Below are positions 22,984 through 27,046 of a DNA stretch of 28,070 nucleotides, in pieces. The stretch is from a virus. Its lineage: Duplodnaviria; Heunggongvirae; Uroviricota; Caudoviricetes. The notes beneath the pieces were generated by a model that worked only from the letters and a program-made list of their open reading frames with translations, was not told where the DNA came from and searched no databases. Where the stretch lies: positions 1 to 28,070 of IMG/VR virus record IMGVR_UViG_2695420596_000005; one strand, 5' to 3'. Position 1 is the first letter of the stretch; every line of letters begins with the position of its first letter. The translations under genes and the position numbers were made by a program.

Positions 22984-23011
22984 TTACAGAAAAAAGGCCG
23001 CTTTCGCGGCC
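22984..23011 (-). terminator. Rho-independent terminator of the ATPase-protease operon
   Basis: GGCCGC-tttc-GCGGCC stem-loop, 8 nt past the protease stop, followed on the minus strand by TTTTTCTGTAATTTTTTT. Confidence 0.6.
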
Positions 23012-23018
23012 ATAAAAA

Positions 23019-25223
23019 TTACGTGTCGAGAGAAATTTGTGTGCGCAGTTGAATAGGATTCAGAATTGTATATCGCTGGCGAATAACATTATATAAATCA
23101 AAGTCTTTTACCCTTACGCTTATTACCATCGCATATTGCATATCAGGGGCTGAAACTCCCTTAACATGGCGCGAAGAATCTCGGGCATGATACCGTATAT
23201 CAAAAACTGGATCGCTTAATAATGTATCAGCACTGAACTTTTTGCTTCTGTGCAAACAAGTTTCCCACTTATGACCTTCACTCCTACACTCCCTTTCAGT
23301 CTTATACTGGCTTTTTTGACCAAAGAAATCATCTGTATCGGTATCGTCAAGGCCGAATCTTGGGCGGAAAGTTACCTGCATACCGGCCCTTGTATAGTTT
23401 ACTGAATGTTCAGGATCTACTGGGGTTTGAATGCATAAAGTAGCGGTAAGCTCAAATGCTTCGTCAAAGGGAACATCAGGGAATGGGATCGGTGCCCTTA
23501 AATATTTATTTTTTGCTAATGAACCATAGTAAATTACTGTAGCAGTATCATTTGGACAATCGATTAAAACGTTAGGATCCTCACTAAACCGTCCCCAACC
23601 GATATGTTCACGCGAATATTTTCTTGATGTTTCAGCATGATGAACAAGCAACGCTTTCAATGCAATGGTGTTCAATGGAGTTCCTGATAGAGCCGCAACT
23701 CCAGCGGCCGTTCTCAATGCTAATGGAGAGGCATAACTGGTTCCTTGAACTCCAACTATAGAACCAAGCAGAGGGTTGTAAGTGTAAAAAGGCTCGTCGT
23801 CGCTTCCACCAAAAATAACACCATCAGGTTTAACGAATCCGGGGCTTCTGCCTGGCCCAATACAGCTATATGGTGCCCGCCCCCATTTTTCACCGCTACG
23901 ATCAGCAGCACCAATCGCTAGCGCGTTTACCATATCGGAAGGAGGTTGTATTCTCGCTGCATCACCGTCCTCATTGCCATCATTCCCAACAGCAACAGTA
24001 AGTAATATCCCATGCTTAGCACAGATTTGGTCTAAAACAGCAGTCCATACATGAACCTCATCATCACCAATTGGAAGATGAGGACCAATACTTAGATTAG
24101 CGAACTTATAGTCACCACTATCAAGAACGGACTGTATTTTCTTAAGGACATCAAATAAATCCCAATTGCCATTGTCACCTGATGTCGGTGAAAGAACTCT
24201 ATAATGATCTACATTCATAAACGGTCTTTTAAAAGAAGGTGCATTTTCCTCGACACGTCCGAATAAGAAAGTGGATGTCACTTCATTACCGTGCTGCAAT
24301 AATAATCCGCTTGTTTCTTTGGTGTCTGGATACACGTATTCCGTAACCCAATTACTCAAGTCAGCTGTCCCCAAGCCACCATCAAAAATGGCAATACGTT
24401 CGGATTCAAGAACAGCTTTAGAATTAGGGAGCTCCGGTGTAACTATATTAGATAACTTTCTGACAATGTTCGGCTGAGTACACCTGAGAGACGGCATCGG
24501 CCGCACAACGCGGATTAATGAAAAATCGAGTGTTTTTTTCATATCTTCAGGTCGCGCGTGTGCAACGATGAAAGTCAGCCCACCAACTTGGATTCTACTT
24601 TTGTAATCAACAGAGACATCATATTGTGCCGCATAGCTAATATAGGCTTTAACGATATCATCGTCTTCAACCCCAGCATGAAGAACCACTTCAAATTTTA
24701 TCAAATCACTTTTCGCATGCTCAAAATTGCGTGCTCTCTCTTTTCCTTCAAAAAAGCTAACACTTTCAATTTCGATCAAATCCTTTTGTACGCCCTTCGG
24801 AGCTGTAGGGGAATTTAAAATTTCCTTAAATCTTATAACGGCATCATCATCACCGCTAACAAACAGTTGCGCCGTTACTAAGTCCTTATTCTGATCGCAC
24901 TGACGTGCCGCTTTCCGTGGGCGAATGATTACCTGACGGCTGCCGACATCCCGTAAACCTGTCGCTCTAAGCAATCCTTCCGGAAAGTAGCTTTTACCCA
25001 AAAACGCTGGGTGTAAAGTTAAATTGAATACACTCTCCCCCCTTGGCTTAGCCGCATCATCCAAACTGCGAAAGCGTGAGAGTAAAGTATCAATCTCTGG
25101 GTTTAAATGCTCCCTTACTTCTTCAAGAGTATAGGGATAGCGCTTACCATCCCTTCCTTTAGGCAAAGGTTCCTTTTTTGTCAGAACATGACCGTTACCT
25201 AAAAGTAAGTTCCTTTCCATCAT
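23019..25223 (-). CDS. S8 subtilisin-family serine protease with extra N- and C-terminal domains (IetS-like)
   Basis: 734 aa. Catalytic-triad motifs in subtilase order: Asp (RIAIFDGGLG), His (LLQHGNEVTS), Ser (GTSYASPLA), plus VAVGNDG. About 270 aa N-terminal and 250 aa C-terminal have no motif I recognise. ATG overlaps the upstream ATPase stop (ATGA). Confidence 0.8.
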   Translation of the reverse strand: MMERNLLLGNGHVLTKKEPLPKGRDGKRYPYTLEEVREHLNPEIDTLLSRFRSLDDAAKPRGESVFNLTLHPAFLGKSYFPEGLLRATGLRDVGSRQVIIRPRKAARQCDQNKDLVTAQLFVSGDDDAVIRFKEILNSPTAPKGVQKDLIEIESVSFFEGKERARNFEHAKSDLIKFEVVLHAGVEDDDIVKAYISYAAQYDVSVDYKSRIQVGGLTFIVAHARPEDMKKTLDFSLIRVVRPMPSLRCTQPNIVRKLSNIVTPELPNSKAVLESERIAIFDGGLGTADLSNWVTEYVYPDTKETSGLLLQHGNEVTSTFLFGRVEENAPSFKRPFMNVDHYRVLSPTSGDNGNWDLFDVLKKIQSVLDSGDYKFANLSIGPHLPIGDDEVHVWTAVLDQICAKHGILLTVAVGNDGNEDGDAARIQPPSDMVNALAIGAADRSGEKWGRAPYSCIGPGRSPGFVKPDGVIFGGSDDEPFYTYNPLLGSIVGVQGTSYASPLALRTAAGVAALSGTPLNTIALKALLVHHAETSRKYSREHIGWGRFSEDPNVLIDCPNDTATVIYYGSLAKNKYLRAPIPFPDVPFDEAFELTATLCIQTPVDPEHSVNYTRAGMQVTFRPRFGLDDTDTDDFFGQKSQYKTERECRSEGHKWETCLHRSKKFSADTLLSDPVFDIRYHARDSSRHVKGVSAPDMQYAMVISVRVKDFDLYNVIRQRYTILNPIQLRTQISLDT

Positions 25224-26302
25224 TTAATCCCCCACTTTTGTAATTTATTCGCGATTGTTGGATGTGAAACACCAACTAATTCAGCTATCTTCCTATTTGA
25301 AAAACCGTCAAAATGATATTTAATTATATTGAGATCATTATCGCTAAACTCATCCAATGAAACCCTCTCCGTAATTACGGCTTCTATTAATGAGCTTTCA
25401 AATGGAATATTTCTAAGTACCTCATTCTTTTTGGAGAAATTCAAAATACGGTTAATGATGGCAAAGGACATGCCATCTAATAATGGTGCAAGTTTTTTAG
25501 ATAGTTCAGGTTCAATATTATGATTGACTAAATATCTATCTATCAGTTCTACTGATGGCATATTAAATTTAAGGATGTGCTCAAATCGACGCCAAACAGC
25601 CGGATCTAAGATATCAGGGTGATTAGTCGCAGCAACAAGAAGCGAGGTCGCTGGCCACTCATCTATGGTCTGTAGGAGTACAGTAACTAAACGTTTTAAT
25701 TCTCCAACGTCCCTGTCATCATCACGTCTTTTTGCAACAGCATCAAATTCATCAAGCAAAAGGACACATGGTTTCTCTTTGGCATAATCCATAACGGATT
25801 TAATATTATTACCTGTTTTTCCCAAAAGAGAACTCATTACAGATGAGAGATCCAATGTTAAAAGAGGTAAATTTAACTTTGCAGCAAGCCAATGTGCGGA
25901 CATTGTTTTGCCTACGCCTGGCGGGCCAGAAAGTAAAACCGTCTTCACAGGTTCAAGACCAGCTTTGAACAAAGAAACCGCATTCTCTCTTTCGTTAACA
26001 ATTGACTCCAGCTTCTTTGAGATATCCGTATTCCATACAGGTTCTTCAACAATTGCGTTGACAGATGTTTCCTGCAAAAGGTTTCGTCTGGAGTCTCCAT
26101 CCACAGGCATAGGAGCCTTACTAGATGCCCCACGTAATACTGTTCCCTCAGCAACTAACGAAGCCAGCTTAGAAGCTAAAGCCTCATCATTTTTACGGAT
26201 GTTGTTAATCATCTTTCTGCATAGGAGTGTAAATGCATTTGCGTTGCCTTTGATGCCTTGCTCGATGAGTTTGAAAAGTTCATCCTCCCTCACGTTTACC
26301 AT
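25220..26302 (-). CDS. AAA+ ATPase with C-terminal helix-turn-helix (IetA-like)
   Basis: 360 aa. Walker A LLSGPPGVGKT, Walker B VLLLDEFDAV, sensor-1 LLVAATNHP. C-terminal NRKIAELVGVSHPTIANKLQKW resembles an HTH. GGGGG Shine-Dalgarno before ATG 26302. Confidence 0.8.
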   Translation of the reverse strand: MVNVREDELFKLIEQGIKGNANAFTLLCRKMINNIRKNDEALASKLASLVAEGTVLRGASSKAPMPVDGDSRRNLLQETSVNAIVEEPVWNTDISKKLESIVNERENAVSLFKAGLEPVKTVLLSGPPGVGKTMSAHWLAAKLNLPLLTLDLSSVMSSLLGKTGNNIKSVMDYAKEKPCVLLLDEFDAVAKRRDDDRDVGELKRLVTVLLQTIDEWPATSLLVAATNHPDILDPAVWRRFEHILKFNMPSVELIDRYLVNHNIEPELSKKLAPLLDGMSFAIINRILNFSKKNEVLRNIPFESSLIEAVITERVSLDEFSDNDLNIIKYHFDGFSNRKIAELVGVSHPTIANKLQKWGIK

Positions 26303-26359
26303 AAAACCCCCAATAAAACATCAGCTTGTGTAAGCTGGTAACTACATTAATGAAAATCA

Positions 26360-26396
26360 TTGACTAATGTTACCACTCTTGCTGGCGTAATTCAAA
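26360..26396 (-). promoter_or_regulatory. Candidate sigma-70 promoter for the ATPase-protease operon
   Basis: On the minus strand TTGAAT (-35, 26395-26390), 17-bp spacer, TAACAT (-10, 26372-26367), ~60 nt upstream of the ATPase start. Found by eye only. Confidence 0.3.
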
Positions 26397-26680
26397 GAGT
26401 ATCCTTACTTTTTTACTGTATGGATAATCAGCATAAAATCTATCCAGTTGGGTTACTCGAACATACTGTCAATACTTGTTTCCAACGATTGATCAGTTCT
26501 ACAGTTTTATCTCCTTCACTTGTGTTGGCAGCATGCTTATTCCTGAACCAGCTCGATTAACCCATGCTCATCGCGGTAGGGATAGAACGCTGCTAAACGC
26601 TCAAAGTCTGCCTGTTCGTGTGTGTTCAGGACTTTTGCCATGTGTGATAACCTGCGCTATCTGTGGTTGTTTGTGACTTG

Positions 26681-26732
26681 GTGTACTTATAAGTACACCT
26701 TGCGCGCAAGCTTAGTGTACTTATAGGAACAC
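26681..26732. promoter_or_regulatory. Operator-like repeats upstream of the repressor gene
   Basis: Perfect 18-bp palindrome GTGTACTTATAAGTACAC (26681-26698) and near-repeat GTGTACTTATAGGAACAC (26715-26732), centres 34 bp apart, ending 6 bp before the C start codon. Confidence 0.4.
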
Positions 26733-26737
26733 TGTCA

Positions 26738-27046
26738 ATGCTTATCGGTGAAAAAATTAGAGTGATTCGTGAATCAGAGGATTTAACGCGCGAAGAATTT
26801 TGCGGCCTGATTGATGTGCCTATCGGCACTTTGCGTCGTTATGAAACGGGGCGGATTGAAAACATAGGGGGCGAAGTGCTTATCAAGATTGTTAATCACC
26901 CTCGCTTTTTTAAGTACATGAATTGGCTTATGACGGGAAAAACAAATGAGGCTGCTGGGCAGATCAGTCCCTCTCTCTCCCCTGATGGGCCAGAAAACAC
27001 ATCGTCTTCTCAAAAATCCCGCAAGACTGGTACACAGCCCGGTTAA
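26738..27046 (+). CDS. C: Immunity repressor, P2 C-like (HTH)
   Basis: 102 aa; EKIRVIRESEDLTREEFCGLIDVPIGTLRRYETGR...NHPRFFKYMNWLMTGK aligns with remembered P2 C; directly upstream of, and co-oriented with, the integrase. Confidence 0.8.
   Translation: MLIGEKIRVIRESEDLTREEFCGLIDVPIGTLRRYETGRIENIGGEVLIKIVNHPRFFKYMNWLMTGKTNEAAGQISPSLSPDGPENTSSSQKSRKTGTQPG

Follow-up and report, generated by a model that had tools for sequence, protein, structure and literature searches.

A C-terminal helix-turn-helix domain in the AAA+ ATPase IetA and its putative operator half-sites in the ietAS promoter

The ietAS locus

The stretch of DNA analysed here (the window) comprises 28,070 nucleotides (nt) of the IMG/VR virus record IMGVR_UViG_2695420596_000005. 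Its minus strand carries the gene pair ietA-ietS, in which the AAA+ ATPase IetA ends in a helix-turn-helix (HTH) domain, the subject of the present study. The two genes and the parts of IetA referred to below are as follows, the genes being assigned from their open reading frames (ORFs) and profile matches.

25220..26302, minus strand: ietA, 360-residue classic-clade AAA+ ATPase, antitoxin partner of IetAS (ORF, PADLOC, Pfam)
25562..25939, minus strand: AAA+ core of IetA, residues 122-247, with Walker A GPPGVGKT (126-133), Walker B VLLLDE (180-185), ATN sensor 1 and RR pair (238-239)
25223..25360, minus strand: C-terminal tri-helical HTH of IetA, residues ~315-360 (profiles, AlphaFold2, conservation)
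25310-25342, minus strand: HTH helix 1
25274-25297, minus strand: HTH helix 2
25235-25264, minus strand: HTH recognition helix 3 (SHPTIANKLQK)
23019..25223, minus strand: ietS, 734-residue S8 (subtilase) peptidase, toxin/effector partner (ORF, Peptidase_S8, PADLOC)

The pair was recognised as IetA (PADLOC PDLC02196, 3.6e-89, residues 7-356) and IetS (PADLOC, 6.6e-41). The NCBIfam models IteA_antiphage (4.5e-75) and IteS (1.9e-33) also match, both under their equivalog cut-offs (253 bits for IetA, where the cut-off is 510 bits), which is why RefSeq names the products only “AAA family ATPase” and “S8 family peptidase”. The ATG of ietS and the stop codon of ietA share 4 nt (ATGA). An in-frame TAG (26342-26344) and TGA (26321-26323) precede the ATG of ietA at 26302, so that the start giving 360 residues, with its GGGGG ribosome-binding site, is the only possible one in the window; a length of 375 residues is given for the ATPase in some database entries (P0001, P0002, P0004, P0005). 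In IetS, which matches Peptidase_S8 of Pfam at 4e-17, the motifs FDGG-280, HGN-311 and GTSYASP-494 were found by pattern match and presumably form the catalytic triad. They are intact, as are Walker A and Walker B of IetA.

IetA is built from an N-terminal helical region, the AAA core (PF00004, E value 9.6e-31, residues 122-247), a four-helix AAA lid (251-313), a linker and the C-terminal HTH. An IetA structure was absent from the copy of the PDB that was searched, and the top Foldseek matches were FtsH, proteasomal Rpt, p97 and PAN. Sigma54_activat (PF00158) was not among the Pfam matches of IetA, and a GAFTGA motif was not found in the protein.

The C-terminal helix-turn-helix domain

A preliminary description of this DNA had proposed that the ATPase ends in an HTH-like segment, a proposal now borne out by HTH profile matches, by the three helices of an AlphaFold2 model and by conservation. 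Both computational checks suggested there, a hidden Markov model (HMM) search of the C-terminus and a structure prediction, found an HTH. The interval first given for the segment, 25220-25330, includes helices 2 and 3 but only part of helix 1, the domain being located at 25223-25360. Its last 26 residues, which are also the last 26 of the 360-residue ORF (residues 335-360), read SNRKIAELVGVSHPTIANKLQKWGIK.

The best HTH models for the tail were HTH_50 and HTH_TypR. Pfam HTH_50, with a cut-off of 27 bits, scored 29.5 bits (E value 6e-7) on the isolated last 70 residues and 26.7 bits on full-length IetA, while NCBIfam HTH_TypR reached 26.7 bits, its cut-off being 30. HTH_38, Sigma70_r4_2, HTH_23 and GerE matched more weakly, and in homologue tails the HTH_23 score was, for example, 32.9 bits against a cut-off of 24.6. 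A profile of 34 tails matched the solved DNA-binding HTHs of DeoR (2.3e-6), EsrB (9e-5) and the TyrR C-terminal domain (3e-4); between the window tail and the last of these (1G2H), 15 of 25 residues are identical, and by sequence the TyrR type is its nearest HTH. A narrow HMM of the class whose recognition helix begins with SHPT found its own class only (61 of 160 homologues), and a Pfam scan of 116 non-redundant tails was used instead. HTH_23 was matched by 75 of these 116, and all of the 25 most-matched Pfam families were HTH families. The IetA tail is an HTH, far beyond chance.

The structure prediction agrees well with the profiles. AlphaFold2 placed helices at residues 321-331, 336-343 and 347-356, preceded by a linker of lower confidence, and the domain folded alone gave a predicted local distance difference test (pLDDT) score of 81.5. 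A three-helix fold with helix-turn-helix geometry is present in the predicted tail. Across 34 homologues of 48-91% identity, G333, S335, R337, I339, A340, H347, P348 and T349 were invariant, all of them located in helix 2, the turn or the start of helix 3, and the linker ahead of the HTH differed in both sequence and length. The eight invariant residues, together with the occurrence of HTH-like tails across many phyla, indicate that the tail is under strong selection.

Distribution of the domain within the IetA family

Eighty loci from a genome search and 80 from an IMG/VR search, covering many phyla, were sampled. In 77 of 80 loci in each set ietS lies directly downstream of ietA, and almost all of the 160 IetA homologues possess an HTH-like tail. 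A 49-residue tail profile searched against 1.84 billion representatives was dominated by tandem-HTH-repeat proteins and does not show how the HTH subtype is distributed.

It should be noted that the founding member of the family is built differently. IetA of pTiC58 (read from pMP90, L090 2986-3972) has 328 residues and ends after the AAA lid, as does the 346-residue IetA of a Klebsiella plasmid (SgiA-like; L091 2758-3798); an HTH match was found in neither. Over residues 8-258, identity between these two proteins and the window IetA is only ~30-32%, and the IetS proteins paired with them fit other IetS sub-models. As judged from the sequences compared, the HTH is the mark of a subfamily, not a feature of the whole IetA family, and regulation of the operons whose IetA ends without it is a separate question. 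In the preliminary description the pair had not been recognised as IetAS, nor the HTH as a subfamily feature. The gene directly preceding ietA in pTiC58 is a DUF6088 gene.

Putative operator in the promoter of the window

Upstream of ietA, a sigma-70 promoter is predicted, together with two inverted copies of a short word that may form an operator.

26367..26395, minus strand: predicted sigma-70 promoter of ietAS, TTGAAT (26390-26395), 17-nt spacer, TAACAT (26367-26372)
26369..26376, minus strand: left putative operator half-site GTGGTAAC, overlapping the predicted -10 hexamer
26335..26342, minus strand: right putative operator half-site GTTACCAG, an inverted copy of the left one, located in the 5' leader 33 base pairs (bp) further downstream

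The promoter assignment is a prediction from the letters of the window; the same register of -35, 17 nt and -10 is found at the Pantoea and Serratia loci. The arrangement TGGTAA-N20-34-TTACCA occurs once in the 28-kilobase window, where 0.01 occurrences are expected. Six enterobacterial loci (E. coli, Pantoea, a viral contig, Serratia, Limnobaculum and Rosenbergiella), the IetA proteins of which are 71-100% identical, were compared. It can be observed that AGTGGTAA.AT is invariant in all six and that the right half-site is TTACCA in four and T(T/C)TCCA in two; the 26-28 nt separating the half-sites cannot be aligned among them. Furthermore, E. coli variants carry 15 substitutions in a 140-nt stretch that spare both GTGGTAA and TTACCA.

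Two further elements were observed near this promoter. About 20 nt upstream of the predicted -35, at 26411-26430, the minus strand reads TGATTATCCATACAGTAAAA and contains the block TGATTAT-N3-TACAGTAAAA, which is invariant in 6/6 enterobacterial ietA loci with diverged flanks. The plus strand of the same interval, TACTGTATGGATAATCAG, resembles an SOS (LexA) box, CTG-N10-CAG; this assignment was rejected, the CTG half being unconserved (ATG in 2/6 relatives), and the block was left unexplained. In the ietA leader, a hairpin CAGCTTACACAAGCTG followed by a T-rich run (26322-26337, minus strand) was flagged as terminator-like by a scan. It overlaps the right half-site, 20 nt ahead of the ietA start codon, and could be a leader structure or a coincidence.

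Half-sites and recognition helices across related loci

The operator proposed here is drawn from a comparison of ~120 related loci, in which the repeated words upstream of ietA differ between clades. Loci were sorted into classes according to how the recognition helix begins, and every 6-mer within 170 nt upstream of ietA was enumerated with no prior. Helices of the S(H/R)PT type pair with GTGGTAA, the motif family to which the left half-site GTGGTAAC of the window belongs, and helices of the SRDTIRK type pair with GTGGACTA. The top 6-mers were GTGGTA, TGGTAA and GGTAAA in 21 S(H/R)PT-type loci (P ~1e-13) and GGACTA, TGGACT and GACTAA in 47 SRDT-type loci, GGACTA being found in 38 of the latter against 2.7% of background tiles (P 2.5e-51). 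TGGTAA occurs in 15/21 loci of the first class and 4/47 of the second (p 3e-7), GGACTA in 0/21 and 38/47, respectively (p 8e-11); the two class motifs are mutually exclusive. Motif counts were 6- to 40-fold above those in shuffles and in the remainder of the same loci. The result was replicated with independent IMG/VR loci, where 11/12 loci of the SRDT class and 0/7 of the S(H/R)PT class contained GGACTA (p 1.6e-4).

The consensus half-sites of the two classes are aaGTGGTAAAttt and aaGTGGACTAattt, and each class has its own geometry. In the SRDT class, convergent pairs 29 +/- 1 bp apart were found in 23 loci at about -82/-53 from the start codon, so placed that they lie on either side of a TTGACA -35 and extend into the spacer; a third copy is often located at the ribosome-binding site. 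In the S(H/R)PT class, two direct copies 11-13 bp apart are joined by an inverted one, and 31-33 bp separate the outer pair. Class-specific repeated half-sites lie over the -35, the -10 or the ribosome-binding site in about 100 loci, in a position conserved across phyla. A motif-agnostic search for inverted repeats of this span, each arm being 8 nt or longer, found them in 20/73 loci against 2.0 in shuffles. The count of 6-mers of any kind present at least three times was 57 against 27.6, a ~2-fold excess that is weaker than the motif-specific tests.

Altered, rarer helices are accompanied by altered half-sites, which the motif-agnostic search also recovered, namely SHTT with GGAACA, THPT..SS with GGAAA, AHTT with GGTGCA and HRAT with GTGGTACA. 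Other helix classes among the IMG/VR loci possess promoter repeats of their own.

135 nt upstream of ietA in IMG/VR loci L169, L171; L152, L153, L160; and L165: own promoter repeats of other helix classes

Here, the SISERQVRN helix is accompanied by CTACG in 4-5 copies ~21 bp apart, the ISPSTVNHHLK helix by TCGAAT/ATTCGA and the ISHSTLEYRV helix by GTACGAA. Taken at the level of sequence, the co-variation of half-site and recognition helix suggests a family-wide helix-to-operator code and points indirectly to specific DNA binding by the IetA HTH.

Probable autorepression by IetA

The computations made here establish which genes are present, that the tail has a conserved HTH fold, and that the promoters carry repeats which co-vary with the recognition helix. 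The best explanation of these results, which we consider probable, would be that the HTH-bearing IetA binds the repeated half-sites in the ietAS promoter and represses its own operon. IetA of this subfamily would have gained a C-terminal, flexibly linked tri-helical HTH, which would bind GTGGTAAC over the -10 and the inverted GTTACCAG 33 bp downstream. The half-sites lie about three helical turns (~100 Å) apart and form no compact palindrome; we infer from this that a single AAA+ oligomer, probably a hexameric ring, uses two of its HTHs to touch both from the same face of the DNA. In this way IetA, the antitoxin-type partner, would repress transcription of ietAS, as type II antitoxins do for their own operons. 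IetA has been reported as the antitoxin in IetAS and SgiAT, in which IetS is toxic and inactive ietA proved uncloneable (PMC13069673, PMC5006074). Autoregulation of the operon had been one of the options named in the preliminary description, and it is the one that gains from the present analysis, in which putative half-sites lie over the ietA core promoter, keep their position across phyla and co-vary with the recognition helix.

Several points weigh against autorepression by IetA. At the level of the window, the predicted promoter matches 8/12 consensus positions and did not reach the threshold of the sigma-70 scan; the right half-site is degenerate in 2/6 relatives, where it reads TTTCCA and CTTCCA, and the window and its enteric relatives carry no more than two half-sites. 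At the level of the comparison, the loci are related and the binomial and Fisher P values ignore this, so that independence is overstated, an effect partly offset by the de-duplication of upstream regions and by intervening DNA that cannot be aligned. The motif was also first spotted by eye in the data set in which it was later tested, a weakness offset by the k-mer scan, which was unbiased, and by replication in an independent set. Start codons are uncertain in some distant loci, especially actinobacterial ones, which shifts the motif positions. Moreover, the HTH is not needed for antitoxin activity as such, since the HTH-less IetA of pTiC58 works as an antitoxin, and a factor other than IetA could be what binds the promoter repeats.

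Alternative readings

An extension of autorepression, which we regard as speculative and rather unlikely, is that the HTH tethers the AAA+ unfoldase ring of IetA to DNA and that the occupied or free state of the operator forms part of the immune switch, sensing and autoregulation being one event. A phage trigger, for which a replication protein, a DNA-mimic protein or competing sites on the incoming DNA are candidates, would dislodge IetA from the operator, stall it at that site or out-compete the site. Such a trigger would derepress ietAS and lift the ATP-dependent restraint on IetS in one step.

It is unlikely that the HTH is the sensor of infection, binding phage DNA or a replication intermediate and thereby releasing or activating IetS. 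This idea draws on the presence of a DNA-binding domain in IetA, on escape mutants and triggers of IetAS, an abortive infection defence, that lie partly in phage replication functions (bioRxiv 10.1101/2022.08.27.505566), and on the recruitment of an SNF2 helicase by one ietAS variant, which hints at a link to DNA (PMC13069673). Against it, the fold marks the tail as a tri-helical HTH of the sequence-specific kind and not as a structure-specific DNA binder, and the target motif deduced for it lies in the system's own promoter in about 100 loci, where it co-varies with the helix. The paired site was not found in the remaining P2-like prophage of the window, and single GTGGTAAC-like words were only marginally over chance (25 observed, 16.3 +/- 3.9 expected). 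Furthermore, HTH-less IetA proteins occur in otherwise similar systems. Binding of phage DNA or of a replication intermediate, the other options of the preliminary description, is favoured by no result in this analysis.

The small chance that the HTH binds the promoter repeats and activates transcription, as AAA+ enhancer-binding or TyrR-type regulators do, was assessed through the likeness of IetA to TyrR and NtrC. In these proteins, as in IetA, an AAA+ module is followed by a small C-terminal HTH of the Fis/TyrR type, and the best HMMs of the tail, as described above, recall them; in addition, one site lies upstream of the -35 in many SRDT-class loci. The half-site of the TyrR box is TGTAAA, which the GGTAAA half-site resembles; this likeness and that of the tail to the TyrR C-terminal domain also count in favour of autorepression. 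A search of the window for the TyrR box (TGTAAA-N6-TTTACA, up to 3 mismatches) showed no enrichment, with 15 observed and 10.7 expected. Unlike TyrR and NtrC, IetA belongs to the classic FtsH/Rpt/p97-like AAA clade, with no sigma-54 interaction domain (no Sigma54_activat match and no GAFTGA) and no N-terminal ligand-sensing domains, and membership of the enhancer-binding/TyrR family was rejected on the grounds of the wrong AAA clade and the missing GAFTGA motif. The position of the sites also speaks against activation: the second site lies within the -35/-10 spacer or on the -10 and the third often on the ribosome-binding site, which are positions typical of a repressor, and the promoters, having a near-consensus TTGACA and 17-nt spacers, need no activator.

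Finally, that the tail is a protein-protein module which docks IetS or stabilises the ATPase ring, another factor binding the repeats, is highly improbable: DNA binding by the tail is deduced from sequence, small three-helix bundles sometimes make protein contacts and Myb/SANT-like matches were seen, but this would leave the change of half-site with the recognition-helix motif across unrelated hosts unexplained, and no other regulator gene is consistently linked to loci that are simply ietA-ietS in 77/80 cases.

Comparison with known systems

IetAS of Agrobacterium pTiC58 was reportedly described by Yamamoto in 2009, and IetAS is said to have been presented as an anti-phage system by Gao in 2020. 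The window pair resembles IetAS of pTiC58 and SgiAT of Salmonella SGI1 in being an operon of two genes, in which the S8 subtilase follows the AAA+ ATPase, and in its location on a mobile element, here a hotspot of a P2-like prophage. Unlike IetA of pTiC58 and the SgiA-like IetA of the Klebsiella plasmid, its ATPase carries the C-terminal HTH. By profile and gene order, the system of the window is a member of the IetAS family, within which, as judged from sequence, it falls into an HTH-bearing subfamily that does not include the founding member. A literature search, with the 2009 pTiC58 and the 2020 primary papers outside it, found no HTH, operator or autoregulation described for IetA.

With type II antitoxins (HigA, MqsA, HipB, Xre-type), autorepression by IetA would share an HTH on the toxin-neutralising partner, operator repeats over the system's own promoter and the logic of control. 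The differences lie in the carrier and in the geometry. Type II antitoxins are small labile proteins, whereas IetA is a 360-residue ATP-hydrolysing AAA+ machine with its HTH at the C-terminus and with half-sites 29-33 bp apart in place of a compact palindrome. Compared with standard autorepression, a classic-clade AAA+ ATPase as carrier and half-sites three helical turns apart are unusual. Serine recombinases, IS30 and Tc3 transposases and GcrA share only the tri-helical HTH fold with IetA, which is without the recombinase or transposase catalytic domain of the first two groups.

Prophage setting

The DNA of the window is 100% identical to the P2-like prophage of E. coli O127:H6 E2348/69, in which ietA-ietS lies between the portal gene and the parMR/gpA region; related phages carry other cargo at this position. 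Downstream of the pair, a further feature was recorded.

22996..23011, minus strand: terminator-like hairpin GGCCGCGAAAGCGGCC followed by a T run, directly after the ietS stop codon

Relative to E2348/69, ~6.5 kilobases of the prophage early region, from within the first early gene through gpA and parMR, are missing at 26559/26560, with 100% identity on both sides and TA microhomology only at the junction. This leaves a truncated early ORF of 34 codons and an early promoter reading straight towards the ietAS promoter. The junction was found in 0/5,426 complete E. coli genomes and in none of the fetched loci. Between a gene for a 102-residue HTH (C-repressor-like) protein (26738-27046) and the truncated early gene sit two direct repeats of 22 nt, CTTGGTGTACTTATAAGTACAC and CTTAGTGTACTTATAGGAACAC (26677-26732); both are partly palindromic and look like prophage immunity operators.

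Implications for the IetAS family

IetAS is widespread, and its anti-phage mechanism was called unknown in a 2026 paper (PMC13069673). How IetA restrains IetS and how infection is sensed are likewise unknown (PMC13069673; bioRxiv 10.1101/2022.08.27.505566). Our results divide IetA proteins into HTH-bearing and HTH-less forms, and for the former they supply a prediction that can be tested cheaply, which specifies the operator half-sites, the distance between them and a code relating helix to motif. The code, in which S(H/R)PT is paired with GGTAA and SRDT with GGACTA, plus the further pairs, offers a natural specificity-swap experiment. It should also be considered in cloning, since removal of the native promoter or of the tail may alter expression, toxicity and the apparent strength of defence. 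The regulatory logic is conventional, and the DNA targets and specificity code are testable for a poorly understood defence system. A coupling of DNA binding to triggering or to the ATPase cycle, if it proved real, would provide a first mechanistic handle on IetAS.

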